NCBI GenBank assembly: GCA_030167145.1
Contig: CP126532.1
Location: 1,770,001-1,802,000 of the forward strand
Length of the DNA: 32,000 nt
Source of the DNA: Ktedonobacterales bacterium
GTDB taxonomy: Bacteria; Chloroflexota; Ktedonobacteria; Ktedonobacterales; JADMIN01
Direction of reading: 5' to 3'
Both the position numbers and the translations under genes were made by a program. The notes under the pieces were generated by a model. That model made no database searches, had not been told where the DNA came from, and saw only the letters and a list, made by a program, of their open reading frames with translations. The first letter of the stretch is position 1, and each line of letters begins with the position of its first letter. Below are positions 1,906-24,030 of the stretch, piece by piece.

Positions 1906-2099
1906 TGGCCACCTCCCCGAGCACGTGTCTCGTAGAGTGATATAACCAACTACTCGCTGCATTCGACTTCCCGTGAATATATGTCGAGATAAGGCTCTGC
2001 GTCAAGTTGAAAGTTCGCGGCGTGAACTATGGCACGATTCCATCATCTACATGCCAGTTACCCTGTGAGTAGTCTAGTGATCGCCCAGCCCGAAATAGT

Positions 2100-2133
2100 A
2101 CGAAAAAGCGGGCCGCGCTTGGCGCGGCCCGCT
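2100..2133 (-). terminator. Rho-independent terminator candidate downstream of the L,D-transpeptidase gene
   Basis: On the minus strand: AGCGGGCCGCGC-caa-GCGCGGCCCGCT, a perfect 12-bp GC stem (2107-2133) followed by TTTTTCG. It lies 34 nt after the stop at 2167. Confidence 0.6.
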
Positions 2134-2166
2134 CATACCTGCTCGTTCTTCTTAGTATAGCCCTGG

Positions 2167-2913
2167 CTACGGATCCACCCGCACCGGCGTCCCCACATTG
2201 ACCCACGTAATAAGCCAGTGCGCCGCGCTCGTCGGCATCTGCACACAGCCGTGGCTGCCCGTTTCGGACGCGCCTCCCGGCCCGATGTGCGGCACATTGG
2301 TGCCGGGTCCGAAGTCGCTGCGCCACCAGGCATTGTGCAGGAAGTAGCCGCCATCCGCAAAGAGCATCGCATAATCAATATAGGTTGGATAGTAGTAGTA
2401 GGGCGAGCCAGGCGGCCACGGCGAACGCATCGTGATCCCGTAGTCCTTCTCCATCACATGGAACAGACCCGTCGGCGTTGCCAGCTCTGGGCGGCCCGTC
2501 GTCACCGGCGTCGTGAAGACCACCTGGCCATCTTGATACGCCCATAGCCACTCGTGCGTCTCGCTGACCACGATATACTGTCCGCTCGACGGCACATTCC
2601 CTGGCGCGGCGGGAATCAGAAAGCTGCCGATGGTGCAATCGCACGTGCCGGGCTTCGCAACCGGACCAACCGGCGTAGCGCTCGGCGCGGAATTGCGCGT
2701 GTACAGGCTGGTCACGGGCAATTGCGCGCGATACTTCATCGCCCCCAGCGGATTCGAAGCCACGCTGGCGACCAGCGCGCCCGTAACGCTGACCAGCACG
2801 ACAAAGCTGAGCAGCGCCAGCAAAACAAACTTGCGCCCACGTCGCCGGGACTTCCGCGCGGCATCCGGCGCGGTCGCGGTTGGGGCTGTGTTCTCGCCGG
2901 ACGAGGACTCCAT
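2167..2913 (-). CDS. L,D-transpeptidase (YkuD domain) with an N-terminal TM anchor
   Basis: C-terminal ...GGYFLHNAWWRSDFGPGTNVPH...GSHGCVQMP carries the YkuD catalytic His/Cys motif. The start is moved to the ATG at 2913 (MESSSGENT..., RBS AAGGAGA). The 107 codons upstream in the track ORF overlap the neighbouring gene and look non-coding. TM helix FVLLALLSFVVLVSVTGALVASV. Confidence 0.85.
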   Translation of the reverse strand: MESSSGENTAPTATAPDAARKSRRRGRKFVLLALLSFVVLVSVTGALVASVASNPLGAMKYRAQLPVTSLYTRNSAPSATPVGPVAKPGTCDCTIGSFLIPAAPGNVPSSGQYIVVSETHEWLWAYQDGQVVFTTPVTTGRPELATPTGLFHVMEKDYGITMRSPWPPGSPYYYYPTYIDYAMLFADGGYFLHNAWWRSDFGPGTNVPHIGPGGASETGSHGCVQMPTSAAHWLITWVNVGTPVRVDP

Positions 2914-3152
2914 ACACGTCTCCTTGGCCGATATGATAGTGAGCAATCGCAATATAGCAGAATCGTGGCCGCGCCGCCACTGTGCAGACCTCACAAGACG
3001 GCCGGCAAAATAGCGTAGGATACGAAAGGTAGCTGTGCAAACTACCCTGCATGTGAGACGGTTTAGCGGCGGTGAGATAACGCTGCCATCACCCACACCG
3101 CCGCTTCTTCCTACCCCGCTATCATCCCATCCACCCCGCGAACTGCTCGCCG

Positions 3153-4013
3153 CTACACCGTGATCACCACCGTCGCGCCGATCTTGGCCCAGGAGTAGAG
3201 CCACTTGCTGGCGCTCGGCGTCACATTGACACAACCATGGCTGCCCGTCTCACGCGCCCCGCTCGGGGTCGTATGCGGCAGATTCGAGCCAGGGCCAAAG
3301 TTCTCACGCCACGCGGCATCATGGATGTAATAGCCGCCCGCGCGGAAGTACAGCGCGTAATTGATATGTTCCGGCGCGTAATAGTACGGCGAACCGTACG
3401 GCCAGGGGGAGTAGAATGTCGTATTCGCCCGTTTGGAGAGAATCTGATACGTCCCGCGCGGCGTCTGCAAGTATGGGCGTCCAGAGGTGATAGGCGTAGC
3501 GAAGACCAGCCGCCCATTCTCATACGCCCACAGCCATTGCTGCGCTTCACTCACCAGAATCACCTGACCAGCGACATGCGGCACACCGCTCGCGGGCGTG
3601 GGAACGACGAGGCCATGCCATACGCAGCGCGCCACGTAGCCGTTGTCGCTGATGGTGCGCCCCGGCTGGCGTGGATGCGCAATCTCTGCCGGGGTAAGCA
3701 TCTTCCGCGTGGCGGGCAGCGGCATACACCGCGATTTCGGGTCATCACGCAGGGCCAGCCGTGACGACGCGGCATCGCTGCCAGGAGCATCCACCGACAC
3801 GGCGAGCGCGTGAGGTTGCGATGGCCCACCATCGGTCTGGCTGGAACACGCGCTGCTGGTGAGACTCAAACAGCATACGAGCAGTGAGAAGGCCAGCAGG
3901 GGCAGGTTACGGCGCAACCACGCGCGATGCCATGCGCGCTGATGCTGGCCTTGCGAAAGAGATGGATGCCTCATTTGAAGCCGTGTGACCTCCATTTCCA
4001 TGAGCGCTTGCAT
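3153..4013 (-). CDS. L,D-transpeptidase (YkuD domain), paralog of the downstream gene
   Basis: ...GGYYIHDAAWRENFGPGSNLPH...GSHGCVNVT motif. Signal-like segment LPLLAFSLLVCCLSLTSSAC. The start is ambiguous among the Met codons between 3974 and 4013. Confidence 0.85.
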   Translation of the reverse strand: MQALMEMEVTRLQMRHPSLSQGQHQRAWHRAWLRRNLPLLAFSLLVCCLSLTSSACSSQTDGGPSQPHALAVSVDAPGSDAASSRLALRDDPKSRCMPLPATRKMLTPAEIAHPRQPGRTISDNGYVARCVWHGLVVPTPASGVPHVAGQVILVSEAQQWLWAYENGRLVFATPITSGRPYLQTPRGTYQILSKRANTTFYSPWPYGSPYYYAPEHINYALYFRAGGYYIHDAAWRENFGPGSNLPHTTPSGARETGSHGCVNVTPSASKWLYSWAKIGATVVITV

Positions 4014-4221
4014 GTAGCTGGCGGAAGCGAACTACCGCATAAATGCGCTCTTGTCTCTTGGACGATGGAGAATAACACATGGTGACACAGCAGACCAGTT
4101 GACACATGACGGCCAGCGTTCGCCCACCGGCAGCCCCAGAAATCGTCACCCAGCCTGGCCCAGCCCCTTGGTAGCGCGCCTACGGCCACCACGCCCCTGG
4201 CACAACCAGATCGCAACCTCC

Positions 4222-4626
4222 CTACCGATTCGCGGGCACTTCCTGCACTGCCCAGCCATTGCCATCGGGATCGCTGAAAAAGATGAACGAGTTCCACGGT
4301 TCGCCTCGCCCATCCACCGCGACCCCATCTGCAAAGTGCTGCACCGGGCTGACCTCCACGCCCCGTCCAACCAGTTCCGCCCGCGCCGCCTCGATATCCG
4401 TCACCACCAGTTGCAGACCCTGCAGCGACCCCGGAGCCATCGCCGTCAGACCCGTGCCGATGGTAACTGAACATGCCGAGCCGCGTGGCGTCATCTGCAC
4501 TACGCGAAATTTGTCGCTGATCCGGTTGTCCACATCCACGACGAAACCCATCTGTTCACTGTAGAAATGCTTCGCCCGATCCACGTCCGCAACGGGCAGA
4601 ACCACCACTTCGAGTTTCCAGTCCAT
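4222..4626 (-). CDS. VOC-family (glyoxalase/bleomycin-resistance/dioxygenase fold) protein
   Basis: 134 aa. MDWKLEVVVLPVADVDRAKHFYSEQMGFVVD... and ...FFSDPDGNGWAVQE are typical VOC beta-alpha-beta-beta-beta module signatures. Confidence 0.8.
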   Translation of the reverse strand: MDWKLEVVVLPVADVDRAKHFYSEQMGFVVDVDNRISDKFRVVQMTPRGSACSVTIGTGLTAMAPGSLQGLQLVVTDIEAARAELVGRGVEVSPVQHFADGVAVDGRGEPWNSFIFFSDPDGNGWAVQEVPANR

Positions 4627-4777
4627 AGCATCATCCTTTCGTGCTCGCCGTTTTCATGACGCATCATTCTTTCGTGACCCATAATTGGCGGCAAAGAGCG
4701 CACCACACACGCCAGGCGCGCCCTCCGCCGCGATGTATGTCAGCCTTGGCCAGCATGAGATCACTGTCCTGCCGCTT

Positions 4778-5272
4778 TTACTCCGCCTGCTTCAGCCGCG
4801 CGAGCAACGCATCCAGCTTCTCCATTCCCTCATTCACGCCGCTCTCCATGCCCGACTCCACCATCGCATCGCGGTCCTCCACCGACTGAAACACCGCATT
4901 CGTGCGCACCAGCGTTCTGCCGCCCTGTTCTTCGAGCGTCAGCGTCTCCAGCGACACATGCCCCGGCGCCCCCTCGAACTCGAAGGTCCGCACGATGCCA
5001 CCCGCTGCGGATGGCGTGCCATGGAAAACCCCGTGAAAGCCGTACTCGTTGCCCTCCGCATCGCGATGCGTGAAGCGCCACATGCCCCCATCGCGCACAT
5101 CCTGCCGCTCAATCGTCATCGTCAGCCGCCGCGGTCCCAGCCACTGCACCAACAACGCCGGATCGGTATACGCGCGATAGAGCAGCTCGCGCGGCGCATC
5201 GAACTCCCTGATAATCACGATCTGCGGCACCCCTGGTTCCGCAATGATCTGTGTCTTCGCCTTCGTCGTCAT
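4778..5272 (-). CDS. SRPBCC / AHSA1-like (Aha1 domain) protein
   Basis: Start at the ATG at 5272 (MTTKAKTQIIAEPG..., RBS GGAAAGGAA). ...IIREFDAPRELLYRAYTDPALLVQWLGP... is the usual AHSA1/SRPBCC N-terminal pattern. This is the classic partner located downstream of an ArsR gene. Confidence 0.8.
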   Translation of the reverse strand: MTTKAKTQIIAEPGVPQIVIIREFDAPRELLYRAYTDPALLVQWLGPRRLTMTIERQDVRDGGMWRFTHRDAEGNEYGFHGVFHGTPSAAGGIVRTFEFEGAPGHVSLETLTLEEQGGRTLVRTNAVFQSVEDRDAMVESGMESGVNEGMEKLDALLARLKQAE

Positions 5273-5330
5273 GCTGCGTTCCTTTCCGATACATGTGCCT
5301 CTGAACTGCCTCTGACATACCGCAATACGC

Positions 5331-5666
5331 TCACGTCGTGTGTTCATCCCGCAACGCCGCCAGCAACGAGTCGAGCCGGTCGTAGCTCTCGTCCCAATAC
5401 TCGCGATAGCGGGCCAACCACGTCGTCGCCTCCAACAACGGCTCCGCCTCCAGGTGGCTCAGGCGCGCCGTCGCCCGTCGGCTGCGCGAAATCAGCCCGG
5501 CCTCTTCCAGCACCTTCAGGTGCCGCGAGATCGCCGGCTGCGACACCGCAAACGGCGCAGCCAGCTCCGCCACCGTCGCATCGCCCTTGGTCAGCCGCGT
5601 CAGGATCGCCCGGCGCGTGGGATCGGCGAGCGCGCCAAACACCGCGCTAAGCTGGTCAACAGCCAT
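5331..5666 (-). CDS. ArsR/SmtB-family transcriptional regulator
   Basis: MAVDQLSAVFGALADPTRRAILTRLTKGDATVAELAAPFAVSQPAISRHLKVLEEAGLI is the canonical ArsR winged HTH. Start ATG at 5666, with GAGGTGG 7 nt upstream. Confidence 0.9.
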   Translation of the reverse strand: MAVDQLSAVFGALADPTRRAILTRLTKGDATVAELAAPFAVSQPAISRHLKVLEEAGLISRSRRATARLSHLEAEPLLEATTWLARYREYWDESYDRLDSLLAALRDEHTT

Positions 5667-5684
5667 TGATAACCACCTCATTTC

Positions 5685-5700
5685 ATAACATATATGTTAT
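5685..5700. promoter_or_regulatory. Perfect 16-bp palindrome; candidate ArsR operator
   Basis: ATAACATATATGTTAT is its own reverse complement. It sits in an AT-rich patch 19 nt upstream of the ArsR start codon. Confidence 0.45.
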
Positions 5701-5829
5701 ATACATGACCAACATTGTTCCGTCAAGTGCCAAACCATCCTCTACGCCGATATACGCAGATCTCCCCATTGCGCGTCGCATCCCTGCTCATTCCCGCTCA
5801 TCCCTGCTCATCACCGTGCTGCTCCCACG

Positions 5830-8472
5830 TCACTCACCCCGCGCATCCGTATCCGCGCTAGCGAACTGCCCCAGCAGCGGATCGTAGTAGCGCGCGTGAT
5901 CGTAGTCGAGGCCCGTCGTCGCATCCCCTTGCTGCCCGGTGAAGCCCTTCGCCGTCGGCATCGCCCCACTACTATAGCGCACACCCCCATACGGCGCATA
6001 CCGCGCGGTGGACGTGACGCTGCCACTCGTGCTGAGCGCCGCCGTGACACTCCCCAGCCCGTCTTGCGCCAGGTAGCTCAGCGTGCCCCCGGCGTTGACC
6101 ACCGTGCAGACGCCGGGCACGCTGTAGTACTTGGTCGTCGTCACCGTGCTGCCATTCGCGGCGATCTCTTCGAGGCCGCCCGCCAGATAGTACGTCCGCG
6201 TCGTCAGGCTGCTGGTGATGGTCTTCTGCTCCACCCGCTCGCCTGCGCCATCATACAACTCGTCGGCCTGGGTGGCGGGACTGCTCGGCGCATTCTGCCA
6301 GTGGGTCAGCCGCCGCTCAGCATCGTAGCTCAGTTGCGCCCCTGTTTGGGTGCCGGAGCACGTCGTGCCGCTGCTCGGCGCACGGCAGACCAGATCCCCC
6401 GCCGCATCGTAGCTGCCGCTGTAGCCGCCCGTGCTGGTCGCCGTCGCCGCATGCAGATGCGCTGGGTCACCATAGCTATAGCTGCCCTGCGTCGTGGTGC
6501 TCGTCAGCCGGTTCTGCGCGTCGTAGCTGAAGCTGCTGCTGTAATACGCCGCCGTCAGTGTCCCCGCCGCCAGCCCGCTGCCACACGACGGCGTGCCGCT
6601 GCTGCCCGCCCAGGTCAGCCGGTTCTGCGCATCATAGCAGAACGTCTGGTGGTCCTGGCCGGCGGGCAGCGTCGTGTAGGCGCTCGTCACGTTGCCCACC
6701 GCGTCGAAGCTGCGCGCCAGGGCGAATTCGGTCGTACTGCCCGCCAGCACGCTCAGGTTGGTGAGGCGCAGGTCGGTGTCATAGGTCGCGCTCCACGAGT
6801 ACGTGTTGTTGGCCAGGCTCGCCCCCGTCGGCTTGCCCGCCGCCCCCGCGCTGTTGGTATAGCTCAGGTTCAGCGCCAGATTGGCCGTCGGCGTCGTCGC
6901 GTTCTGCAGCCAGCCGTAGCTGGTGTAGCTATAGCCGAGCGTCTCGCCATCGGTATAGGTCACCGTCGTTGGCTGCCCGGCGTCGTTGTAGCCGTAGCCC
7001 ACGTTATAGGTCACCAGCTCGGTCGTCGTCTGCTTCAGCAGCGTCACCTGCCCCCGCGCATCGTAGCTGTAGCTGTACGCCCCGCTCAGCGGATCGCTCG
7101 CCGTCCCACCCGTGAAGCTCTCGCTGGTCAGCCGCCCTTTGCCCTGATTGCCGCTGGCGGTGCTGTCGTAGCCATAGGTCACATACGCCCCGCTGCCGCT
7201 ATTCGTGGTGTTGCGCCACAGCGGGCGGTTCTGCCCATCGTAGCCGATCCACACCATGCCGCCGCTGGGTCGCGGATCCTGCGTGGAGAGCAGGTTGCCG
7301 TTGGCGTCGTAGGTGTACGCCCAGCCGTTGCCCAGGTCGGCGTCGTTCAGCGTCAGCGCCCGCCCCAACAAGTCATAGGTGCTGCTGGTCTGCATGCTGG
7401 TCGAGAGGCCCGCGCCACCGGAGAGCGCCGGTCCCGTCACGCTGAGCGTATCGCCCAGCCAGTCGTATTTCGACGACGTGACCCCATACAAACTATACCC
7501 ACTGGCGCTCGTGCCCGTGAACGTCTCGACGTAGCGCGTATGGCCGAAGCCATCCACCAGTTGTGTGCGCTGGTGGCTGTTGGCGTCCACCACTGTCGTC
7601 GCCTCGTACCAGTTGGTATCGCCGACGTTCACCCCCTGTGGCTGCGCCTCGCTGTAGCTGGTGTTCGTCACATTGCCCAGCATATCACTCGCCGCAACCA
7701 CCCGCCCCAGCCCGTCGTAGCTCTGGCTGCTCAGCGGCTTGCTCAGATCCGGTCGGAAGTAGCGCGGCGCGCAATCCGCCTGGGTGTAGCCCACGAAATA
7801 CGGGTCGCTCTGATACTGCTGCCGCCCGCTGGCATCACAGGTGGTGTACTGCACCACGAAGGTGCAGGCCCCACCGCTGTAGTTCTGCGGCTTCACCGTC
7901 TCCACCGCCCGGCCCCAGCCGTCGTAATACGTCGCGCTGGTCACCGTCGTCGTGCCGGAGAGCCGCTGCGTCGCCAGCAGCGCGGTGCAGGGTTCGCTCG
8001 CCCCCGTCGTCGCGCAGGTCACCTGATAGCTATAGCTCGTCGTCGGACTGCTCAGCGTATCGCTGTAGCCCGGCTGCGCCGTCGCCGTCAGCCGCCCCAG
8101 CGCGTCATAGGCGTAGCTCGTCGTCTGGCCGTTGGCGTCGCTGCTGCTGGTCAGCCACGTGCCCCAGCCGTTGGTCGCGTCCGGGCTGTTGGGATTCGCG
8201 CCATCCGTCGTATAGTTGAAGCTGCTGCTCTCATCGGTCGTGCTCGTCAACGCCTGGGTGATCTGCGTCGGCAGCGCGGAGTACAGCCCATCAAACTGCG
8301 CGCAAGCCGTATAGGCCACCGAGGCAATTGTGCAATTGGTCGCGTCGGTGTGCTGGGTGTTGCCCGCCACCGCGTCGGCGTCGCGCACCCCCAGCAGATT
8401 GCCGTTGCTGTCATAGGTTCGCGTCGTGCTCACCTGCCCATCCTGCGCCAGATTGCCGAGCGTGCCGAGCAC
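5830..8472 (-). pseudogene. Rhs/YD-repeat core remnant, truncated at both ends (no N-terminal region, no toxin tip)
   Basis: 880 aa of YD repeats (YDxxGN/YDALGRL motifs). It is divergent from the main Rhs, not a copy. The frame opens just after a TGA (~8487) right behind the upstream gene; the track start is a GTG with no RBS. It ends ...ARYYDPLLGQFASADTDARGE*, about 25 codons short of the GGLNRYAYVGGNPE..DPxGH core end seen in the other copies. Confidence 0.65.
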
Positions 8473-8515
8473 GTTGCCGATGTTTCATCGGCTCCTCGTG
8501 CTGGTTCAGCGCGAC

Positions 8516-9112
8516 TTACCAAGAATCAAACCATGCGACAAGCCGCACTTTATCATCACCATAGCGCTCAGCAAGAAGCGCCATGATCTTGAAGAGGAGT
8601 GTCCATCCCGCAGTGAGTACGCTCTTTCGCGTTCGCGTGGCCTCCCAATAGACGCCAAAGTCTTTTTCCTTTTCTCGGTAATAATCTTCCCACTCTGCGC
8701 CGGGCACGCTTGTGCGCCTGCGCCGAATATGCCAGCGCTCTCCCTCATCGCTCCACTCTGTATACACATAAGCGGGATCACGACCCTCGTCGTGTTCCCA
8801 GTCAACGGTATATCTGATTGCTTTCTTTCCCTCTTCGGTCCAATTGATGGCTTGAATCTCGCTCCAGAGCATCCACGTCGGTGCTACAAGACCCCCTCCA
8901 GCTCTAAGTTCATCCCCATGAACATCATCAGACTCGTCGGCTGGTAAGCCTCGATTGGGATATGCCGGGGTAAAAGCGTCTTCATTGCGCACACCAAACA
9001 AACTACCGAACATGCCATATGTGCGCCCCACGAGAGGTCGGATACGGACAACCCCGCTCCAACGGCTTGGCAGGTCTTGCACCTCGATCCACCCGATGAT
9101 ATCCACACCCAT
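8516..9112 (-). CDS. Putative immunity protein for the upstream orphan Rhs-CT (no recognisable family)
   Basis: A 198-aa acidic/Trp-rich cytoplasmic-looking ORF, immediately downstream of the toxin ORF and on the same strand. It has its own GAGGAG upstream of the ATG at 9112. The assignment is positional only. Confidence 0.5.
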   Translation of the reverse strand: MGVDIIGWIEVQDLPSRWSGVVRIRPLVGRTYGMFGSLFGVRNEDAFTPAYPNRGLPADESDDVHGDELRAGGGLVAPTWMLWSEIQAINWTEEGKKAIRYTVDWEHDEGRDPAYVYTEWSDEGERWHIRRRRTSVPGAEWEDYYREKEKDFGVYWEATRTRKSVLTAGWTLLFKIMALLAERYGDDKVRLVAWFDSW

Positions 9113-9217
9113 GTCCTATCTTACTCCTCTACCCACAGGCCATATAGATATGGCATTCGTGATCAGGACTATTGACACATAGCTGCACCTATCTGGCCTC
9201 ATCAGCACGGCAAACTG

Positions 9218-10168
9218 TTAATCCATCACGGGTTGGACATAGTTTGGATCAGCCTTCACCGGACCATAATTCAAAGGATTATAGTCATCTACAACTTTGC
9301 CATCGTAAATGAACAATACGCGTGCGACTCGTGACGGATCTTTTAGTCCCGGATATGGTGAAAAAACCGCGCGCGCCGCATACTCGTTCAACTGTGCCTG
9401 GCTGAGTGTGGCAGCCCCATCCACTTTCCGCAGGTCCACGACTACAATAGATGCCTGCTCAGCGCCCTTCTGAATGATGGTGTTGACGATTCCTCCTGGA
9501 TAATTGCCTTCAGTGTTATCCCATTTGGTCCCCTGGTCAGGAGTGTACAGGTCTACGGCAACGTGGCCAGACTCAAGCCTAAACGGATACAATCCAGCGG
9601 CATAACTCTGCTGGATGTATACGTCATAGTCAGGGCATTTCCCTGCCGGATAGCAGTTGACCAGCTGTCCATTGACCGCCAAGGTGTCTTTTAAACGTGT
9701 TACATGGATACCAAAATAGCTGGCCAAGACCGATCCGTCCTCACTCTCCTCAGGATCAGTTCTCCAATACTTTTGGTCTGTGAAGCATCCTTTCGGATAG
9801 CAGTTGTCATCTTCTTCCGTCAGCCCCCATCCTACCGTGTACGATCTGGGATTTGGCTTCCGCCAGTTGCTCCAAAAGGGCCAGCCGCCACCGGTATTGC
9901 TATCACAATCATCGCACACCCGATGCCCGCTCGGATCGGTCTTGGTCTCCGGGTTGCCACCGACATACGCATACCGGTTCAGCCCACCCTTGGCGTCCGT
10001 ATCCGCTTGCGCGAACTGCCCCACCGCCGGGTCGTAGTAGCGTGCCCCGTAATAATCCAACCCCGTGCTCGCGTCGGCATACTGCCCGGTGAAGCCCCGC
10101 GCCGTCGGCATCGTCCCCGATGCGTACCGGAACGTGCCATATGGACCATACAGCGTGCTCGCCGTCAC
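9218..10168 (-). CDS. Orphan Rhs C-terminal fragment: ~80 aa of core end plus a ~230-aa uncharacterised toxin domain
   Basis: ...GPYGTFRYASGTMPTARGFTGQYADASTGLDYYGARYYDPAVGQFAQADTDAKGGLNRYAYVGGNPETKTDPSGH, then a novel tail (RVCDDCDSNTGGGWPFWSNW...). The track start is a GTG with no RBS. The frame opens directly behind the stop of the preceding gene. Confidence 0.75.
   Translation of the reverse strand: MTASTLYGPYGTFRYASGTMPTARGFTGQYADASTGLDYYGARYYDPAVGQFAQADTDAKGGLNRYAYVGGNPETKTDPSGHRVCDDCDSNTGGGWPFWSNWRKPNPRSYTVGWGLTEEDDNCYPKGCFTDQKYWRTDPEESEDGSVLASYFGIHVTRLKDTLAVNGQLVNCYPAGKCPDYDVYIQQSYAAGLYPFRLESGHVAVDLYTPDQGTKWDNTEGNYPGGIVNTIIQKGAEQASIVVVDLRKVDGAATLSQAQLNEYAARAVFSPYPGLKDPSRVARVLFIYDGKVVDDYNPLNYGPVKADPNYVQPVMD
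9930..10087. repeat. Rhs core-end homology block, 158 bp, 100% identical to 13738-13895
   Basis: Base-by-base comparison of ctcggatcggtcttggtctccgggttgccaccgacatacgc...gtcggcatactgccc in both places. Diverged copies lie at ~11960-12140, ~16440-16600 and ~5840-5960. Confidence 0.9.
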
Positions 10169-10234
10169 GCTAGCGCTGCACCTGCACTTATGCTGCCCAG
10201 CCCATCGCTATGTCGCCTGGCCTCGTGCCCACTT

Positions 10235-11077
10235 CTACTCTAGCGCTACCGCCCATTGAAAAGGGTGACCGGTGGCACGCTCCCACTTTGCAATGGCTTC
10301 GCGCAAGCGCGGCGCATTGCGCTCATAGAGTTCCTGGTTCGTGGCTAGTGTACCTGAGGGTGGATCAGCTAACGTGATCACGAGCGGTGGGATGGCTCCT
10401 TCGCGGTCATCCCAGGTGAGTTGGGGGTTCTGCTGCCGTAACTGCTTCCAGTTCTCACGGACTTCGGCAAGTACAGCGCTGTTATCCCGCTGAAACACCG
10501 AGACAACCCCGAAGCGCAAGCGCGCGGTCCAGGGGGCAAGACCTTCATCCCGCACTCGCTGCGCATCCTCGCCGGTTGTCCCTGCCGAGAGCCGCAAGGA
10601 GCCAACATTGCGCAGCCAGCGCTGGCGCAGCGTTCCCTGCTCATCGCGCACCGAGGCCAGCACATCCAATTGGATACCGGCACCTCTGACATAGGGCAGC
10701 GGCACCACCCGCTCCTCTAGACGTTCCAGCAAGTCAGGGAGGGTGTCAGACTCGACAGAGAAGGGCGGGCCAAGGACGCTTGGGAAAGTGGTTTGATATG
10801 ACCCCCGTATTGTGTTCCGAACAGAGGCAACGGAAGCAAACGCCTCGGCAAACAGACGTATCTGTCGCGCAAGAAACACGCCGACCTGTGTTTCCCCTTT
10901 CAGCCCGCCTACTCCTATCGCCATTGCGCCAAGTTCAGCCAGGTCGTCGTAATACCAGGTATCCAACCACAACGACAGGATTTCCTTGCCAAGCTCCCCA
11001 TCGAAGAGACCATAGTTGGTATAGGCCTCGGGATGGATGCCTGTCCCATCCCGTTGACTGACATGTGACGATGGCAT
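10235..11077 (-). CDS. Putative immunity protein for the upstream orphan Rhs-CT (no recognisable family)
   Basis: 280-aa ORF with a strong RBS (AAAGGAGAG-4 nt-ATG at 11077), downstream of the toxin ORF. The assignment is positional only. Confidence 0.5.
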   Translation of the reverse strand: MPSSHVSQRDGTGIHPEAYTNYGLFDGELGKEILSLWLDTWYYDDLAELGAMAIGVGGLKGETQVGVFLARQIRLFAEAFASVASVRNTIRGSYQTTFPSVLGPPFSVESDTLPDLLERLEERVVPLPYVRGAGIQLDVLASVRDEQGTLRQRWLRNVGSLRLSAGTTGEDAQRVRDEGLAPWTARLRFGVVSVFQRDNSAVLAEVRENWKQLRQQNPQLTWDDREGAIPPLVITLADPPSGTLATNQELYERNAPRLREAIAKWERATGHPFQWAVALE

Positions 11078-11114
11078 ACATCTCTCCTTTTAGGGAAGCA
11101 CATCTATTCGAAAT

Positions 11115-11176
11115 GCACTTTGCCTAAAGCACTTTGCCTAAAGCACTTTGCCTAAAGCACTTTGCCTAAAGCACTT
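11115..11176. repeat. Tandem repeat, 14-bp unit GCACTTTGCCTAAA x 4.4
   Basis: Four perfect units (11115-11170) plus the partial unit gcactt. It lies in the 147-bp gap between the toxin stop (11225) and the immunity start (11077). Confidence 0.9.
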
Positions 11177-11224
11177 GAGCTTCACTCCACTCGCCAGTTG
11201 CACATCCTTATGGCTACGGCAATC

Positions 11225-12166
11225 TCAATCATAACTCGCTGGATCAGGACCAGGCCCCCAGCCAAAGGTATCATACTCAACAACTCCGTTCAAAATAAAG
11301 ATGACACGTTTGGGCACCGTTGTGCCCCGCGCCGTATTCGTAAGGTAATCGCCAAAGTCAACAAGCCCTTGGCTTGACAGCCCTTTGAGGTAGTTGTTCT
11401 CGCTCATATCGATGACAATAATAGGCGCCTGGCCAGCCGCCTTCGCGCGTGCCCTCCTATCAATGGTTCCCCGAGTAGTGTCTGCCTCTGGAAACATCAA
11501 ATCCATTGGAGTAGCCCCACCCAGGCCGAATTGTGCGCCGGGCCAACGTAACGCAGGGAAGGCTTGGAATAGGCCAACCAAATAATCAGCCCGCTTAGGG
11601 GTGTTCGGGTTGTTTCCATCGGACCGATCTTGAATGTAAACGGTGAGTCCGAAGTACGCCATCAGAACATAGGCATCCGCTGTCTCCTGATTATCTTCCC
11701 TTGTTCGATGGAACCCAAACACTTTCCACAAGTCCCCATCAAAACCTCGATCATCGAAAACCTCAGGCGGCAAAGTATTCCCATCGTGGCGGTGTTGCGC
11801 TATGTACTCGGCATAGTCAGTCCAACTGCCAAAGTCACCACCGCTCCCTCCGCCGCCATCTGCGGCGCTACTTCCACTGAAACCGCTAGCGCCACCGCCA
11901 CCACCACCACCGCCACCACCGCTGCCACAGCTATCATCCTCCTGGCAGTCGCGCCGATGCCCGCTCGGATCCGTCTTCGTCTCCGGGTTGCCCCCCACAT
12001 ACGCATAGCGGTTCAGCCCACCCTTCGCATCCGTATCCGCTTGCGCAAACTGCCCCACCGCCGGGTCGTAGTAGCGTGCCCCGTAATAATCCAACCCCGT
12101 GCTCGCATCGGCGTATTGCCCGGTGAAGCCCCGCGCCGTCGGCATCGTCCCCGACGCATAGCGCAC
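11225..12166 (-). CDS. Orphan Rhs C-terminal fragment: ~70 aa of core end, a poly-Gly linker and an uncharacterised toxin domain paralogous to 9218-10168
   Basis: (V)RYASGTMPTARGFTGQYADASTGLDYYGARYYDPAVGQFAQADTDAKGGLNRYAYVGGNPETKTDPSGH, then RRDCQEDDSCGSGGGGGGGGGGASG... The tail aligns by eye with the 9218-10168 tail: AYFGLTVYIQD vs SYFGIHVTRL; QAPIIVIDMS vs QASIVVVDLR; KRVIFILNGVVEYD vs ARVLFIYDGKVVDD. GTG start with no RBS, and an in-frame TGA 3 codons upstream. Confidence 0.75.
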   Translation of the reverse strand: MRYASGTMPTARGFTGQYADASTGLDYYGARYYDPAVGQFAQADTDAKGGLNRYAYVGGNPETKTDPSGHRRDCQEDDSCGSGGGGGGGGGGASGFSGSSAADGGGGSGGDFGSWTDYAEYIAQHRHDGNTLPPEVFDDRGFDGDLWKVFGFHRTREDNQETADAYVLMAYFGLTVYIQDRSDGNNPNTPKRADYLVGLFQAFPALRWPGAQFGLGGATPMDLMFPEADTTRGTIDRRARAKAAGQAPIIVIDMSENNYLKGLSSQGLVDFGDYLTNTARGTTVPKRVIFILNGVVEYDTFGWGPGPDPASYD

Positions 12167-12188
12167 ACTAGTTCATGCTACATGAGAG

Positions 12189-12737
12189 TCACTCTATATA
12201 TATGTGATATTGCCGAATCTCTGCGCTGTAGCTTTCGCGGATGTGCCGCACAAGGTCATGACTCGGTATCCGCAGCAGTATATCTGGAATATTGATGGGT
12301 GAGGGAGAAATCTTCGCATTGATTAGCATCGTCCATTTTTGAAGAATCGTTTGTCGAGAGAGCAAGGGTTCGAGATCCCGCGGAACAATCGCTAAATATC
12401 TCTGCGTTAGCACTCTATAAGATGAGATGGCCGCAATTTCTTCCCACTTGATAAGTCCAGCGCCGAACAGCGTAGTATTATCCCAAATGCCGGTATCGTT
12501 GACAAGAAGAGCGGGCCGGGGCGAAATGAGCGTGAAGAGGGCAGAGATACCTCCAAGAGCACAAAATGGCACTACTAAACACACAATGATGATGGACGTG
12601 AGAGAATTCGCTATGAGGTCTCGCGATTGGATGGCATATAGCACTCCTACTCCGGCACTGGTTAGCGCGATTAGAGCCAGAAACGCGGCGAGTCCCTTGC
12701 GTGAACCCAACGCTAGACTCTTCCCAGGGCAACCCAT
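12189..12737 (-). CDS. Two-TM membrane protein with a C-terminal soluble (bacterial PH-like?) domain; putative immunity for the glycine-zipper Rhs-CT
   Basis: Strong RBS (AAAGGAGGG-tat-ATG at 12737). Two hydrophobic helices: LAAFLALIALTSAGVGVLYAI and IIIVCLVVPFCALGGISALFTLI. Visibly AT-richer than its surroundings. The PH-like call is a guess from the architecture. Confidence 0.55.
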   Translation of the reverse strand: MGCPGKSLALGSRKGLAAFLALIALTSAGVGVLYAIQSRDLIANSLTSIIIVCLVVPFCALGGISALFTLISPRPALLVNDTGIWDNTTLFGAGLIKWEEIAAISSYRVLTQRYLAIVPRDLEPLLSRQTILQKWTMLINAKISPSPINIPDILLRIPSHDLVRHIRESYSAEIRQYHIYIE

Positions 12738-13100
12738 ATACCCTCCTTTGATTAACGCCGCTGACGTCTAGACTTGCCGACACACTACTTACTTGGTCAT
12801 GCGTAAGCTTCATCATGATCAGCATACTTGAATATGGCCCATTTCTCAAGATCCTGATTGTCCAGCTATCAATAGAATACGCAAACGAAACACACCTTCG
12901 TTGCTTAAAGCTGGAATGTCGGCTCAGCCAGAGGAGAACGTTTATCAAGCGGTTGCATGACATAACTATGCGTCCTAACTATAACGTGTTGACTTATCAG
13001 GCCAATTGTCATGGCCGCGCCGCATGGTACAGCTATGATTTTGGCACAGATGTACTCGCACTGGCCACGGCCGGCTCCTGATAAATACTTGGGCGACGAC

Positions 13101-14411
13101 TCATAGTCCACTCATAGGAACATCCGGAAGGTAATTCGGATCGCCAGTGTAGCTGTTGTTCGGAAGTTCATTAGCTTGCACTATTTGATCCCCCAACCAG
13201 TTGCCTACCAACGCCCCACCAAATGCACCAACAGCAGCACCAACAAATGGGATAGGTATCAGTGCTTGGCCAATGGCGGCGCCAGTGAAGGCAAATGCGG
13301 TTGTAAATGTTGCGTGTAGTGCCCCAATTCCCACAGCTTGAGCGACACCATCTTGTGGACGAGCAGCGTAATAGCTGGTGCTTGTGTTATACCAATCGGC
13401 AGCGAAGCCTGCAGCTGCTAGAAGGAGGGCCACCCCATCAACAACCCATCCATAGCGTTCAAGAAACGCTATCTTGCCTAGACTGCCAGGCGCTCGACGC
13501 CAATATGAATCCACTACGGTGCCATCCGCGCGAGTATAACCTTGCACAAATACCGTCTTCTTGTTCAGAGCCGCAATGGCACGAGCAATCCTTTCTTGTT
13601 CAAAACCAACGACTATACCTTGACCAGCCAAAAAATCACCCTCATTATGTAGCAACCACCGATAGATATTGAATGGGGAGCTGGTCTGGCCACTACTACC
13701 ACTCCCACCGTCACAATCATCGCACAGCCGGTGCCCACTCGGATCGGTCTTGGTCTCCGGGTTGCCACCGACATACGCATACCGGTTCAGCCCACCCTTG
13801 GCGTCCGTATCCGCTTGCGCGAACTGCCCCACCGCCGGGTCGTAGTAGCGTGCCCCGTAATAATCCAACCCCGTGCTCGCGTCGGCATACTGCCCAGTGA
13901 AGCCCCGCGCCGTGGGCATCGTCCCCGACGAGTAGCGGTAGGTGCCATACGGCCCATAGAGCAGGCTCGCCGTCACACTGGCGCTGCCCCCAGCCAGCGC
14001 CACGCTCACACTCCCCAGCCCATCGCTCGCCAGATAGCTCACGGTGCCACCGACGTTGAGCGCCGTCACGATGCCCGGCACGGCATAATACTTGGTGACC
14101 GTCGTGCCGGTGATCTCCTCCAATCCCCCCGCCAGGTAGTACGTCCGCGTGGTGGCGCCGCCGCTCACCACCTTCTGCCCGATGCGCTGCCCCTCGCCGT
14201 CGTAGGCATAGCTCACCGTCGTCGTCGGGCTGCTCGGCGCGTTCTGCCAGCTCACCAGCCGCCCTTGGGCATCGTAGGTGAGCTGCTGCCCGGTCGGCGT
14301 GCCTGCACACGTCGTCAGGTAGCTAGGCGCACGGTAGGTCATGTTCCCTGCCGCGTCATAGCTGGCGGTGTAGTATGGCCCACCGCTACCATTGCTGCCC
14401 GCCGCTGTCAC
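13101..14411 (-). CDS. Orphan Rhs C-terminal fragment: ~235 aa of core end plus a glycine-zipper membrane-type toxin tail
   Basis: (V)TAAGSNGSGGPYYTASYDAAGNMTYRAPSYLTTC... is colinear and nearly identical with the main Rhs up to ...GGNPETKTDPSGH. The tail ends in a Gly/Ala-zipper hydrophobic segment: AVGIGALHATFTTAFAFTGAAIGQALIPIPFVGAAVGAFGGALVGNWLG. GTG start with no RBS; the frame opens at a TGA ~14458. Confidence 0.8.
   Translation of the reverse strand: MTAAGSNGSGGPYYTASYDAAGNMTYRAPSYLTTCAGTPTGQQLTYDAQGRLVSWQNAPSSPTTTVSYAYDGEGQRIGQKVVSGGATTRTYYLAGGLEEITGTTVTKYYAVPGIVTALNVGGTVSYLASDGLGSVSVALAGGSASVTASLLYGPYGTYRYSSGTMPTARGFTGQYADASTGLDYYGARYYDPAVGQFAQADTDAKGGLNRYAYVGGNPETKTDPSGHRLCDDCDGGSGSSGQTSSPFNIYRWLLHNEGDFLAGQGIVVGFEQERIARAIAALNKKTVFVQGYTRADGTVVDSYWRRAPGSLGKIAFLERYGWVVDGVALLLAAAGFAADWYNTSTSYYAARPQDGVAQAVGIGALHATFTTAFAFTGAAIGQALIPIPFVGAAVGAFGGALVGNWLGDQIVQANELPNNSYTGDPNYLPDVPMSGL
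13738..13895. repeat. Rhs core-end homology block, 158 bp, 100% identical to 9930-10087
   Basis: See 9930-10087. Upstream of it, 13900-14420 is additionally near-identical to ~16600-17100 of the main rhs gene; for example, caccgtcgtgccggtgatctcctccaatccccccgccaggtagtacgtccg occurs in both. Confidence 0.9.
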
Positions 14412-14517
14412 CGCGTGCAGGTGGCTGTTCTTCGTCGCCCGTGGGTGCAGTCAGGGCGCCAGCTTTGCATACGTCTTCTACCGCAATGGTCCTGACGGCA
14501 GCACCCGTTCACCCTGC

Positions 14518-15480
14518 CTACCCATACCAGCCATACTCCCGTGCCATCCGCTCAGACCGTGAACGATTACCAATCTGGAGGAGCTTCTCGCGTTCGTAGA
14601 GCTGCAAGTATGCGTTGCGTGTCTCCAGGTCCAGGCCGTAGAGCCGCTCCAAGAAGTGGTCGAGGTCTGCACGTAGTTCCGGCAGATCCTGCCACCACTG
14701 CTCCTCGACCACAGGATACCGCTCATGCAGATACCCCATCAGCAGATGCACCGTCCACAAGGCGAGCGTCCTGGCACGGTCAGTGGCGCGCTCAGGATGG
14801 GCAGGAGCCACGCCAGTTAATGCACCCACCGCCCCCAGTTGCCCCAGCGCATAGACGAGTCCATCTTGATACCCCAGCAGCACCTGCAACTCTGACGCCA
14901 CGGTAAGCAATTCATTATCCTGCGCTGTCATGTTGTCGAAATCCACAATCTCTCCGCGAAACAAGATCGCTTCAGGGTTGAACGAATAGCTCCCCGTGAC
15001 CGCAATCGTCGCCTGCAGCGCACGCCGCAGGGCGGGGGCCGCCACAGGATCGCCTAATCGTCCTAACAGCCCGGGAATGTCAGCCTGCCACGATTCCAAG
15101 AAGCTCGCTAGTTGTTCTCGCCAATCGTCGTAAGGCGGCTCGCCAGGTAGAAATTCGCCGAGCAGTTCCATCAACGGCTGCACCGCCCGCTTGTCACCTG
15201 CATGCGCGAGAGCAATACGACATGCTTGCCGCTCAGCAACATCAGAACTCTCCATGAGAGATGCGAGGTAATCCCTGGCTTGCGGTATCCTCCGGCAGCC
15301 CAGCGCGAAGAGTGCAAACAGCCTATCGTTCCCCTCTGCCTCGTGGTGCATGCGCATCAGCGTCGGCACATCAGGACTGCCCCATCGGCTGTGCAGCCGC
15401 TCTAGCTGCTCTTCCATGTCATGCTCGCCGTAATCCAGCATGGCTGCGGCATAAGTCAAACCGGGATCCTGCTCGTCCAT
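14518..15480 (-). CDS. HEAT-like repeat protein; putative cognate immunity for the Rhs deaminase tip
   Basis: 320 aa, with GGAGG 5 nt upstream of the ATG at 15480. It is the first gene downstream of the main rhs. HEAT/PBS-lyase-like repeat strings: SSDVAERQACRIALAHAGDKRAVQPLMELL and LGRLGDPVAAPALRRAL. Confidence 0.55.
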   Translation of the reverse strand: MDEQDPGLTYAAAMLDYGEHDMEEQLERLHSRWGSPDVPTLMRMHHEAEGNDRLFALFALGCRRIPQARDYLASLMESSDVAERQACRIALAHAGDKRAVQPLMELLGEFLPGEPPYDDWREQLASFLESWQADIPGLLGRLGDPVAAPALRRALQATIAVTGSYSFNPEAILFRGEIVDFDNMTAQDNELLTVASELQVLLGYQDGLVYALGQLGAVGALTGVAPAHPERATDRARTLALWTVHLLMGYLHERYPVVEEQWWQDLPELRADLDHFLERLYGLDLETRNAYLQLYEREKLLQIGNRSRSERMAREYGWYG

Positions 15481-15607
15481 CTCAGCCTCCAGTACCGCGT
15501 GTTACCATCATCGCTGGTTACAAGTCGTCCTGTACATCACCTCCAGTCTATCCAAGTCGGTGACGCAACGACTCCTAAAGATGCCCGACCATTTTATGAA
15601 ATGGCTA

Positions 15608-18600
15608 CTACTGTTGACTACTATATAGTATAGGCTTGCCACCATCCCCTACCAACCAGACATTCAGTATCACGTTGACATTTCCTTGTCCTGCTATTTG
15701 TAAGCCTCCTAGCCATACGCCATCGAGAAGTTGGGGTCTGCAGAATGGAGAGCATGGTTCTTTTCCAGTCAGCAGATCAACCGTAATATCTCCCGTGTAT
15801 CCAGCCGCAACTTGTCCTTGAATCCACAAAGCTGCTGCTCGCAACACTTGCACCTCCGCATGCATTGTATTGTTACGTCTGCCAGTACCGAGAACAGGGC
15901 CGAACTGCGGAGACACTACTGCGCCCGATGCATCGCTAATAAAGGCAGCGGCAATTGCGGGCTTTCCTAGTTCTCGCCCAAAGTTCGATTGACGTTGGTC
16001 TACTAACTTGGCCAAGCTCGCGAGCATTGACAGTCTGTCTGCCCTGCGCCCTCCGCCATTGCCGCCACTATTCCCGCCCCCGCCTGCCGCCGCTACCTCG
16101 GCGCGTGACTGCACTGTCTCATCAGGCGCACCGGCCATGCCCCCATAGGGCAGGTCGGGATCCAGATTCGTATCTTGCAGGATCCTTTCGCCGTTTTTCT
16201 GCGTAACCCACTCGCTCTGGCCGTCTGGGGAGATATCATGTACTGTGCCATGCGCGTCGGTATACTGCACATCGCCCCAGTAGCTGTTGTTGCTGGAATC
16301 TCCACTCCAGGCGTTCGGCATACCACCGCAACAGTCGGGGGCGCCAGGTCCATCATTCGCCCAGCCACCTTCAAATGCAGCCGGGTCAACGTCATCTTGC
16401 ATGTGCCCGGTCGGGTCAATGCGTGTCTCGGGATTGCCGCCCACATACGCATACCGGTTCAGCCCATCGAGCATGGTATCGGCTTGCGCAAACTGGCCCA
16501 CCGCCGGGTCGTAGTACCGTGCCCCGTAATAGTCCAGCCCCGTCGCCGCGTCGGCATACTGCCCGGTGAAACCCCGCGCCGTCGGCATCGTCCCACCACT
16601 GCTGTAGCGGAAGGTGCCATACGGCCCGTAGAGCGCGGAGGCGGTCACACTCGCGCTGCCCCCAGCGAACGCCGTGCTCACACTCCCCAGTCCATCGCTC
16701 GCTAGATAACTCACCGTCCCCGCGACATTCACTGCCGTCACGATGCCCGGCACCGCATAATACTTGCTCACCGTCGTGCCGGTGATCTCCTCCAATCCCC
16801 CCGCCAGGTAGTACGTCCGTGTCGTCACGCCGCCGCTCACCACCTTCTGCCCGATGCGCTGCCCCTCGCCGTCGTAGGCATACGTCACCGTCGTCGTCGG
16901 GCTGCTCGGCGCGTTCTGCCAGCTCGCCAGCCGCCCCGCCGTATCGTAGGTGAGTTGCTGCCCCGTCGGCGTCCCGCTGCACGTCGTCAGGTAGCTCGGC
17001 GCACGGCAGGTCATATCGCCCGCCGCGTCATAGCTGGCGGTGTAGTACGGCCCGCCGCTGCCATTGCTGCCCGCCGCCGTCACCGCGTCCAGGTGCGTGT
17101 TCGCCACGCCATACGTGTACGCGCCCAGGCTGCCATTCGTGATGCGGTCGAGAGTGTCATAGCCGTAGCTATAGGTGTAGCTCGCCCCGCTCAAAGTCGT
17201 GCTCGGCGTCACCGCTGGCGTGCAACTCGGTGTCCCAGCGGTTCCCGCCCAGGTCAGCCGGTTCTGCTCGTCATAGCAGAAGGCTTGCGTATCTGTGCCG
17301 GTGGGCAGTGTGGTGCTGACGCTGGTGACATTGCTCACCGCGTCATACGTGCGCGCGCTGCTGAAGAGCGTCGTGCCGCTGTGGGTGAAGTTCAGGCTGG
17401 TCAGCCGCAGGTCGGCGTCATGGCTCGCGCCGAAGTTGACGCCGTCACCCAGCGTCGCTCCCGTTGGCAATCCAGCCGGACCACCCCGGTCGTAGGTGGC
17501 GTAGCTGATCCCCGTCACCACGTTCTGCGCCGAGCCACCGCTGGGCGTCCGTGTCACCGAGTCCAGCCAGTCCGCGCTATTATAGGTGTAGCTCAGCAGT
17601 TCGTTGTCAGCATAGGTGATACCCGTCTGCTGTCCCGCATCGTTATAGCTGAAGCTGAAGCTATAGTTTGCGGAATCTACCGTCACGTCCCAGATGGTGC
17701 GGTTGCCTCGCGCGTCATAGGCAAACGTATAGCTGCCAGCGCCAAAACTCGCCCCGGTATTGAATGTCTCGCTGGTCAGTCGCCCCTTGCCATTATTGCC
17801 GCCTGCCGTGCTATCGTATCCCCAGGTTGCGTAGGGACTGCTGCCACCAGCATTCACGCTGTGCCACACCGGACGGTTCAGCGGATCGTAGCCAATATAT
17901 ACCGTCCCCGCCCCACCGCGCGCATCCACCGACTTCGTCAGATTGCCGTTCGCGTCATAGGTGTAGGACTCACTTCCGCGATCCGGATCGTTCAGGCTCG
18001 TCTGTTGTCCCGCCGCGTCGTAGCCGAAGGTGGTCGTGCTCGTGCCGTTGGGATGTGTGATCGTCGTCAGGTTCCCAGCGTAGTCGTAGCTGTATGTCGT
18101 CCCCGAATAGAAGGTGTAGCCCGTACCGCTCGTGCCACTCGTGCGCACATCCTCGATGGTCCGTCCCAATGAGTCAACGATGCTGTAAACCCGGTGGCTC
18201 AGTGCATCGGTCACATTCTTCTGCTCGTCGCCGATACCACTGCCATCCCAGTTCGTCACCACCACATACGAGGTACTGGTGGTCTTCGAGTACGCATCCG
18301 TGGCGCTGATCACCCGCCCCAGGCCGTCATAGCCAGCGGATGTGCCCGGCTCGCTCGCGTCTGGTGCGGCGAAGGCCGCCGAGCCAGGGCCGCCGGTATA
18401 TGACGAGGTGTTGTAGCTGATGCTGGCGAAGATGTTGCGCTCCGAAGGGTCGTACTCTGCATAGCGGACTGCATCGTAGCCCGGCCCTGGTATGCGCGTC
18501 TCCGCAAGATTACCATAGCCATCGTAGAACGAGCGCGTCGTAATCGCCGTGCTTCCGTCCACCTGCTGTGTCTGATCCACCTCGACACATGGCGCCTGTG

Positions 18601-23967: not shown

Positions 23968-24030
23968 GTGGCCGCTGGACAACCCACCTGGCAACCCCAC
24001 GTATAGTTCAGAGTGTGGAGTTGAGGATGA

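Follow-up and report, generated by a model that had tools for sequence, protein, structure and literature searches.

Displaced Rhs toxin tips probably stacked by C-terminal displacement downstream of a full-length rhs gene in a soil Ktedonobacterales chromosome

According to the C-terminal displacement model, which Jackson and colleagues are said to have proposed in 2009 for enterobacterial rhs genes, displaced tips come to be stacked downstream of the gene together with retained pieces of core. A related toxin-immunity system in a different type of bacterium, WapA/WapI of Bacillus subtilis, was reportedly described by Koskiniemi and colleagues in 2013. In Salmonella Typhimurium LT2 the order is rhs-main, rhs-CT-orphan and rhsI, with a single orphan, core blocks that are 95% identical over 522 bp, and redeployment of the orphan demonstrated (Koskiniemi et al. 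2014, PMC3967940). Polymorphic toxin loci in general carry strings of cassettes in the form of toxin-immunity pairs, with arrays being typical and a median ratio of active toxins to cassettes of 1:3; such toxins are abundant in Chloroflexi, where the TcdB/TcaC-type architecture of signal peptide, SpvB and RHS is found (Zhang et al. 2012, PMC3482391). Here, we examine an rhs locus in a 32,000-nucleotide stretch of DNA from a Ktedonobacterales bacterium (assembly GCA_030167145.1, contig CP126532.1, positions 1,770,001 to 1,802,000; hereafter the window). A full-length rhs gene, its candidate immunity gene, three orphan modules and a core remnant follow one another in that order, all on the minus strand (Table 1). 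We consider it very probable that, at this Rhs polymorphic-toxin locus, C-terminal displacement has exchanged the tip three times or more, leaving orphan toxins that are silent and immunity genes that can be expressed.

The anatomy of the locus follows that of LT2 in several respects. In both, a full-length rhs gene and its immunity gene precede a fragment that has homology to the 3′ end of the core, an immunity gene of its own, and no translation-initiation or export signals, and in both the proposed function is redeployment through homologous recombination. However, there are three orphans and a core remnant in place of one orphan, identity between the main gene and the orphans is 81-87% over 190-680 nt as opposed to 95% over 522 bp, the host is a member of the Chloroflexota, and the main gene carries a predicted Sec-type signal, with no PAAR, VgrG or type VI secretion system (T6SS) genes seen within the window. 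A preliminary description of the window, made from its letters and a list of open reading frames (ORFs), had placed three orphan modules and a core remnant downstream of the main rhs gene, and all of the ORFs lie on the minus strand at the positions that it gave. Its assignment of the modules to the orphan rhs-CT/rhsI architecture also holds, as each combines a truncated core, an end-of-core motif, a distinct tail and an immunity gene with a ribosome-binding site (RBS), and the fragments are devoid of Shine-Dalgarno (SD) sequences and signal peptides.

Table 1. Features of the rhs locus, in window coordinates. SD entries (hexamer and spacing) are from the scan described in the text, and core-end blocks were delimited by BLASTN and alignment.
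Feature	Position	Strand	SD match	Remarks
LuxR/GerE-type regulator	22484-22879	-		Directly upstream of rhs; Pfam GerE E=1e-15
Main rhs	15608-22351	-		ORF-finder version 15608-22417, 2269 codons
Main tip	15608-16402	-		264 aa, presumed toxin
Immunity candidate 1	14518-15480	-	TGGAGG, 5 nt	320 codons
Orphan 1	13101-14430	-		ORF-finder start 14411
Orphan 1 core-end block	13731-14430	-		
Orphan 1 tip	13101-13730	-		C-terminal glycine-zipper membrane segment
Immunity candidate 2	12189-12737	-	AGGAGG (perfect), 4 nt	
Orphan 2	11225-12166	-		
Orphan 2 core-end block	11957-12166	-		70 codons
Orphan 2 tip	11225-11860	-		~200 aa, after Gly-rich linker
Immunity candidate 3	10235-11077	-	AGGAGA, 5 nt	
Orphan 3	9218-10182	-		ORF-finder start 10168
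Orphan 3 core-end block	9923-10182	-		
Orphan 3 tip	9218-9922	-		Distant homolog of orphan 2 tip
Immunity candidate 4	8516-9112	-	AGGAGT, 10 nt	
rhs core remnant without tip	5830-8472	-		880 codons

The start of the variable tip in an Rhs protein is marked by an autoproteolytic end-of-core block, expected to have the form …YYxxRYYDPxxGRFxxxD…PxxxxDPxGL. In the main gene this block reads GLDYYGARYYDPAVGQFAQADT…NPETRIDPTGH, with the motif NPETRIDPTGH at 16403-16435, and the core protein ends ...YYGARYYDPAVGQFAQADTMLDGLNRYAYVGGNPETRIDPTGH. Every orphan fragment contains ...QADTDAKGGLNRYAYVGGNPETKTDPSGH, and homology ends exactly at DPSGH, after which the sequences are unrelated. The block closes with H where L is expected, both in the main gene and in each of the orphans. 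A profile in which this block is included matches the autoproteolytic region at the C-terminus of solved TccC3, YenC2, Tse5 and T6SS Rhs structures (E from 2e-10 to 1e-7), and the blocks are therefore genuine Rhs core ends.

Alignment of the window against itself with BLASTN reveals that the orphan fragments begin inside the 3′ core, over 210-700 nt, and that these blocks are 81-87% identical to the main gene and 92-94% identical among the orphans. For orphan 1, 13753-14430 aligns with 16425-17102 of the main gene (87%, 681 nt), for orphan 2, 11958-12151 aligns with 16404-16594 (84%), and for orphan 3, 9924-10182 aligns with 16404-16662 (81%). Homology to the main gene, as proposed in the preliminary description, is therefore present at the nucleotide level. 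That description had put the retained core at 70-235 codons before a switch to a new tail; counting through DPSGH, we find ~241 codons in orphan 1, 74 in orphan 2 and 85-90 in orphan 3, with the tails diverging from that point. When orphans of different genomes are compared, their 5′ boundaries fall at approximately residues 1708, 1741 and 1772 of the main protein (numbered from the TTG at 22417). They do not coincide, and we rejected the idea of a recombination hot spot at these boundaries that is shared across genomes.

The way in which the core ends differ is informative about their origin. The protein encoded by the final 65 core codons is identical among the three orphans, and the 15, 11 and 4 nucleotide differences between them are all at third positions and all synonymous; over the full core blocks dN/dS is 0.1-0.26. 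Neutral drift of untranslated fragments would be expected to yield mostly non-synonymous changes, and therefore the orphan blocks diverged while they were translated. This argues that the blocks represent three distinct, closely related functional rhs alleles that were likely acquired separately, rather than local duplications drifting neutrally. The 3′ end of the main gene is the most divergent of the four, in its protein as well (TMLDG/RIDPTGH versus TDAKGG/KTDPSGH in the orphans), which fits with its being the latest arrival, having displaced orphan 1. Several closely related donor alleles, suggested by the synonymous-only divergence, distinguish the locus from the enterobacterial rhs model, as do the different phylum and the DPxGH that stands in place of DPxGL. 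Shared with that model are a GC-rich core, AT-richer tips, the stacking of displaced tips and their apparent acquisition by horizontal transfer. The synonymous-only divergence and the DPxGH variant are new details worth recording, and the former offers a simple sequence test of whether displaced cassettes derive from distinct functional alleles.

Base composition follows the same divisions. GC content is 0.66-0.67 in the core blocks, 0.51-0.56 in the tips, 0.50-0.59 in the immunity genes and 0.48 in the spacer at 12738-13100, compared to 0.60 for the window, so that tips and immunity genes lie 10-15 GC points under the core blocks. This agrees with the earlier remark that the cassette interiors are AT-richer, especially at 12170-13100.

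Start signals separate the immunity genes from the toxin fragments. We scanned for SD sequences at the consensus level only, scoring six positions against AGGAGG at a spacing of 4-10 nt. All four immunity genes score 5-6/6 (Table 1), in keeping with the strong RBS previously ascribed to them, whereas none of the four fragments reaches 5/6, the first starts of the three orphans and of the remnant scoring 3-4/6. The fragment frames open 13-65 nt past the stop codon of the preceding immunity gene, as close behind it as first described. The further statement that each fragment has only a GTG and no RBS needs one small correction: an SD is indeed missing, but in-frame ATGs are found a few codons into the fragments, also without an SD, an example being 12145, which is the JGI start of orphan 2. 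In orphans 1 and 3 the GTG (at 14411 in orphan 1) is preceded by another 5-7 codons of core homology, and those GTGs are therefore arbitrary ORF-finder starts. Inspection of the sequence revealed no hydrophobic N-terminus or signal peptide on any fragment, and thus none of the secretion signals that the preliminary description would have taken as a sign of independent genes. The orphan toxins are probably promoterless and silent. Immunity genes 1 and 2 are both preceded by spacers with sigma-70-like consensus matches, and the AT-rich, 363-nt spacer of immunity gene 2, at 12738-13100, has two promoter-like sites (13005-12978 and 12849-12821).

It could conceivably be argued that the fragments are independent small toxin genes that use internal or non-canonical starts and act without the Rhs shell. 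JGI annotates them as proteins of 413, 306 and 297 aa, in-frame ATG and GTG codons are available, and the autoproteolytic core-end motif is kept in each fragment. However, no early in-frame start has an SD of at least 5/6, while every neighboring immunity gene does, the core homology continues upstream of the called starts, and there is no signal peptide. In addition, the fragment boundaries vary (70, 85 and 240 codons), as expected of recombination scars and not of a defined domain. We therefore regard independent genes as very unlikely.

C-terminal displacement probably accounts for this arrangement, as follows. DNA arriving with the 3′ part of a core, a different tip and the immunity gene for that tip would recombine with the resident rhs gene within its 3′ core, so that the older core end moved downstream together with its tip and immunity gene. 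Repeated events of this kind would leave orphan toxin fragments without starts lined up behind the gene, every one of them next to an immunity gene equipped with an RBS. The product of the full-length gene alone would be exported, by means of its Sec-type signal, with the RHS shell enclosing the tip and autoproteolysis taking place at PxxxxDPxGH. The orphan toxins would not be made because they are without an SD, signal peptide or shell, whereas their immunity genes could be expressed and would protect the cell from relatives still deploying those toxins. Finally, the common core blocks of 200-700 nt might permit occasional homologous recombination by which the main gene acquires an orphan tip. 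The sequence itself shows the anatomy and homology of the locus, the contrast in RBS, the intact frames, signatures of purifying selection, toxin-type relatives for three tips and one conserved toxin/immunity pair; we infer in which order the events took place, that the orphan toxins are silent, that the immunity genes are expressed and that tips are switched.

Recombination onto the main gene appears plausible for orphan 1, for which the longest exact run shared with the main gene is 55 nt (within 681 nt at 87%), and marginal for orphans 2 and 3. Several observations weigh against our interpretation. Orphans 2 and 3 match the main gene over ~200-260 nt at 81-84%, and their longest exact runs are 23-24 nt. 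This is close to the least homology on which RecA-dependent recombination can act, and the two orphans may as a consequence be effectively stranded. No sister strain was found when genomes and metagenome contigs were scanned with the last 505 core residues, as all of the 45 + 80 loci recovered are at most 61% identical in amino acid sequence. The core remnant does not fit into the same displacement series, being too divergent for homologous recombination at 68% nucleotide identity. Consensus promoter matches are not enriched (12 found versus 7.5 +/- 2.9 in shuffled sequence), which neither supports nor excludes promoters, and tips are separated from their immunity genes by long spacers of 105-363 nt. 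Lastly, the four immunity genes are candidates by position, apart from conservation in two metagenome contigs (L096 and L097) that are described below. Apart from the source contig, exact-protein look-ups matched a single Logan run, which is from the same strain. Alternative tip junctions were not seen, although this is uninformative given that short-read contigs break at the repeats.

Some of the same evidence could favor an immunity island with fossil toxins, in which the immunity genes are kept against neighbors and the orphan toxin fragments are inert and never redeployed. Only the immunity genes have SD sequences, identity of the main gene to orphans 2 and 3 is low with short exact runs, and the orphans are closer to one another than to the main gene, making the present main 3′ end a poor recombination partner. 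Yet all three orphan tips are uninterrupted ORFs of ~200-240 codons, without frameshifts or stops and in AT-richer DNA, and the core-end differences are synonymous only, although selection may have acted in the donors before acquisition. Furthermore, orphan 1 has kept the long block and 55-nt run noted above. We hold fossil toxins to be a possible but doubtful explanation. It is also unlikely that the orphan stack consists of actively cycled cassettes in a filamentous soil member of the Chloroflexota, with the synonymous divergence arising from continuing selection and with at least two undescribed toxin families. If this were true, fragments would regularly be recombined into the expressed position, switching toxin identity for kin discrimination, and the undescribed families would be the nuclease-like fold of orphans 2 and 3 and the deaminase-motif tip, the latter without a homolog in a word-indexed search of 5.8 billion proteins.

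Given that the locus contains repeats of 200-700 nt and comes from a JGI metagenome-type record, the repeats might have been collapsed or mis-joined within the 5-Mb contig. Four Logan contigs from a separate short-read assembly (SRR22113990) make such an artefact extremely improbable. They are 100% identical to the window at 14224-16799, 12125-13767, 10091-11144 and 1-9959, and their ends fall exactly in the repeated blocks or in a 14-nt tandem repeat. Between them they span the main core, main tip, immunity 1 and orphan 1; the orphan 1 tip, immunity 2 and orphan 2; immunity 3 and orphan 3; and the orphan 3 tip, immunity 4, remnant and chromosome. The only part of the array without Logan coverage is 11145-12124, the orphan 2 tip segment. 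Therefore, the order of the modules and the junction of the remnant to the chromosome are independently reproduced by short-read assembly for most unique segments. The tandem repeat is a perfect repeat of GCACTTTGCCTAAA (4.4 copies, 11115-11176) in the spacer that leads from the stop codon of orphan 2 to immunity candidate 3, and contig L131 ends inside it.

The preliminary description listed the core remnant with the orphan cassettes. The 880-codon piece exists, but it comes from a second rhs lineage, one far more divergent, and lies outside the displacement series. It aligns to residues 1119-1959 of the main protein at 46% amino acid identity and is closer, at 57%, to the Rhs protein of a Chloroflexia metagenome-assembled genome (MAG; locus L002). 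At the nucleotide level, 5861-6791 matches 16488-17430 of the main gene at 68% only. Truncated at both the 5′ and the 3′ end, the remnant terminates ...DTDARGE*, ~20 codons short of the expected DPxG motif, and has no tip, immunity gene or SD; the missing 3′ end is absent from all three frames downstream. The independent contig L132 shows the same join between the remnant and the ArsR gene. GC content at third codon positions (GC3) is 0.87 in the remnant and 0.85 in the ArsR and ABC-transporter genes, versus 0.69 in the main rhs gene, the N-terminal half of which has an overall GC content of 0.58. The host-like GC3 of the remnant and the lower GC3 of the main gene suggest that the present expressed rhs gene was itself horizontally acquired, and that the remnant may be the older resident. 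It could have arisen by deletion between tandem rhs genes, or the present locus could have inserted into an older gene.

The main gene encodes an RHS/YD shell, as indicated by matches to Pfam RHS_repeat (E=3.9e-24 in 6 stretches) and by the precomputed JGI matches to RHS_repeat and TEN_YD-shell. Translation likely begins at ATG 22351/22348, as GGGAGG is located 5-8 nt upstream; alternatives are the TTG at 22417 chosen by the ORF finder and the start at 22261 chosen by JGI. We read the N-terminus (RR…MPLLLVALLVSGAFGQLAQA) as signal-peptide-like: an n-region rich in Arg, then a hydrophobic core, then AQA. A SpvB-like region scores weakly, at 18.9-21.5 bits against a cutoff of 22. MAGs of Ktedonobacterales and Dormibacterota have Rhs genes in which the N-terminal 678 aa are conserved (37-57%). 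Like WapA, the protein has Rhs/YD repeats, appears to be exported by Sec from a monoderm-type cell, and ends in a toxin that varies, with its immunity gene located downstream. Unlike WapA, it has a SpvB-like N-terminal domain without wall-binding repeats, and an orphan array accompanies it.

The main tip is a presumed toxin with deaminase-like motifs. The motifs HAE and PCxxC (here PCSPFC), read from the sequence and 35 residues apart, a deaminase-like spacing, are reminiscent of deaminases of the cytidine deaminase (CDA) fold. No homolog of the tip was identified by Pfam (E up to 5), NCBIfam, a PDB sequence search or a protein database search, and BLASTP gave no alignment to a DddA toxin sequence. 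A single-sequence AlphaFold2 (AF2) model is unusable, with a predicted local distance difference test score (pLDDT) of 54. Immunity candidate 1 (320 aa) is a HEAT-repeat protein (Pfam HEAT_2, E=3e-8), and a homolog (24% identity, E=7e-12) is located directly after another Rhs core end and tip in metagenome contig L097.

The tip of orphan 1 scores 22.8 bits against Pfam Gly-zipper_Omp, under the cutoff of 25. The sole database homolog of its tail is P0001, a 302-aa WXG100-domain protein that is 38% identical over 100 aa and is located among EccC-, WXG100- and YukD-type genes of an ESX/type VII secretion system (T7SS) locus. The occurrence of this tail on two delivery chassis, Rhs and WXG100, is a hallmark of a polymorphic toxin domain. 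The homolog occupies 4001-4909 of locus L127 (GCA_017880035.1, JAEDZT010000657.1), which has EccC, two WXG100 and YukD/FHA genes. It is followed there by a 257-aa PF27351 protein, and the two are a candidate membrane-targeting toxin/immunity pair of a T7SS. A relationship between the PF27351 protein and immunity candidate 2 was considered and rejected. Immunity candidate 2 is a membrane protein of the STM3941 family (NCBIfam NF041635; 90.3 bits versus a cutoff of 40, E=1.1e-25, 153/157 profile positions), for which no function is stated.

The tips of orphans 2 and 3 are related to each other (28% identity, E=2e-8); the other tips are unrelated. An exhaustive HMMER search of 1.84 billion representatives returned 10 relatives, and all of those with an N-terminus begin with an Rhs core end. 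Hence, the two tips appear to belong to a rare toxin family that is known to date from Rhs core ends only. Given the family alignment, AF2 produced a model of the orphan 2 tip with a pLDDT of 84 and a predicted TM-score (pTM) of 0.82. Its best meaningful Foldseek match is 4g6v_A, the CdiA-CT of Burkholderia pseudomallei, with a probability of 0.97, a TM-score of 0.59 on the target and a weak E of 0.049; restriction endonucleases are found lower in the list. The match to CdiA-CT/CdiI of B. pseudomallei 1026b, for which the TM-score is normalized to the 132-aa target, has 17% identity, but the orphan 2 tip has an extra N-terminal part of ~70 aa and is associated with delivery by Rhs, not by CdiA. 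Against Pfam CdiA_C (PF18451) the orphan 3 tip scores 20.1 bits, under the gathering score of 26.6, and the orphan 2 tip has no match; neither tip has a sequence-level match in the PDB. In an alignment of nine tip sequences E59, D92, D151 and R185 are invariant, and the D/E of a DLYYP motif and the K of an RxK motif are almost always kept. Taken together, a PD-(D/E)xK-like nuclease is likely but unproven.

Immunity candidates 3 (280 aa) and 4 (198 aa) match no family, and although their toxins are homologous the two are not related to each other. In the soil metagenome contig L096, an Rhs core end continues into a tip 48% identical to that of orphan 3, and directly downstream is a homolog of immunity candidate 4 (41% identity). 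As tip and immunity protein recur together, the pair travels as a cassette. In this region of L096 (1655-2534 and 3185-5643) the relative is an isolated orphan of ~240 core codons plus tip just downstream of apparent transposase ORFs, as read from their translations, and this context hints that insertion sequence (IS) elements can move such cassettes.

The window is part of a 5.07-Mb contig (JGI 3300045419 Ga0494333_323), and ordinary chromosomal genes flank the locus, including those for sigma-54, the ribosomal protein L9 C-terminus, an ABC exporter, MerR, ArsR and YkuD transpeptidases. Among named sequences, those closest to the sigma-54 protein all come from Ktedonobacterales, at no more than 74% identity, so the earlier suggestion of a non-proteobacterial host was correct, and the chromosome is that of a soil member of the Ktedonobacterales (Chloroflexota). 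The closest Rhs cores, 46-61% identical, are from Ktedonobacterales, Chloroflexia and Dormibacterota MAGs of the genome collection and from metagenome contigs. Similar arrays occur in related soil MAGs: among 97 loci with a core-end match, 12 hold 2-4 core-end copies (for example L016, L006 and L023, in Ktedonobacterales and Chloroflexia MAGs), and an Acidobacteriota locus (L041) has three copies at a looser threshold.

The preliminary description was correct about the array and its host, but the novelty that it implied for a non-proteobacterial array four tips deep is small, because cassette arrays, abundance in Chloroflexi and the 1:3 ratio have all been published (Zhang et al. 2012, PMC3482391). 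The present locus has that same median ratio and does not differ in kind from the arrays reported there, apart from the orphan 2/3 family and the main tip, which match none of the Pfam and NCBIfam models searched. The observation is thus correct but ordinary, of an architecture already known for polymorphic toxin loci, and leaves the current understanding of these systems unchanged. What the locus does provide is a clean, independently verified case of apparent serial Rhs tip displacement outside Proteobacteria, with a predicted Sec-type signal instead of a T6SS context. It also supplies four uncharacterized candidate toxin/immunity pairs, including the CdiA-CT-like family and the tip with deaminase motifs. 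Deaminase toxins are useful as base editors.

Several neighboring features deserve mention. Rfam and tRNA scans of the window returned no matches. The LuxR/GerE-type helix-turn-helix (HTH) gene is on the same strand as rhs, and an HTH segment with 55% identity is located upstream of rhs in metagenome contig L047; the protein may be a dedicated rhs regulator. Between the divergent ABC-exporter gene (from 24031 onward, plus strand) and the LuxR and rhs genes (minus strand) is a non-coding stretch of ~700 nt (23200-23970). It contains 9 copies of a ~22-nt motif, AAAATCGGCAGAATCGGCAAC, longer repeats of 58-144 nt and a perfect 27-nt pair at 23900/23941, and might be either an array of binding sites for a regulator or a repeat dispersed through the genome. 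On the downstream side, a few kb beyond the orphan array, a gene at 1279-1962 (minus strand) encodes a TIR_2-domain protein (E=9e-11) that may be defence-related, and it adjoins two tandem YkuD L,D-transpeptidase genes (2167-3234 and 3153-4013).

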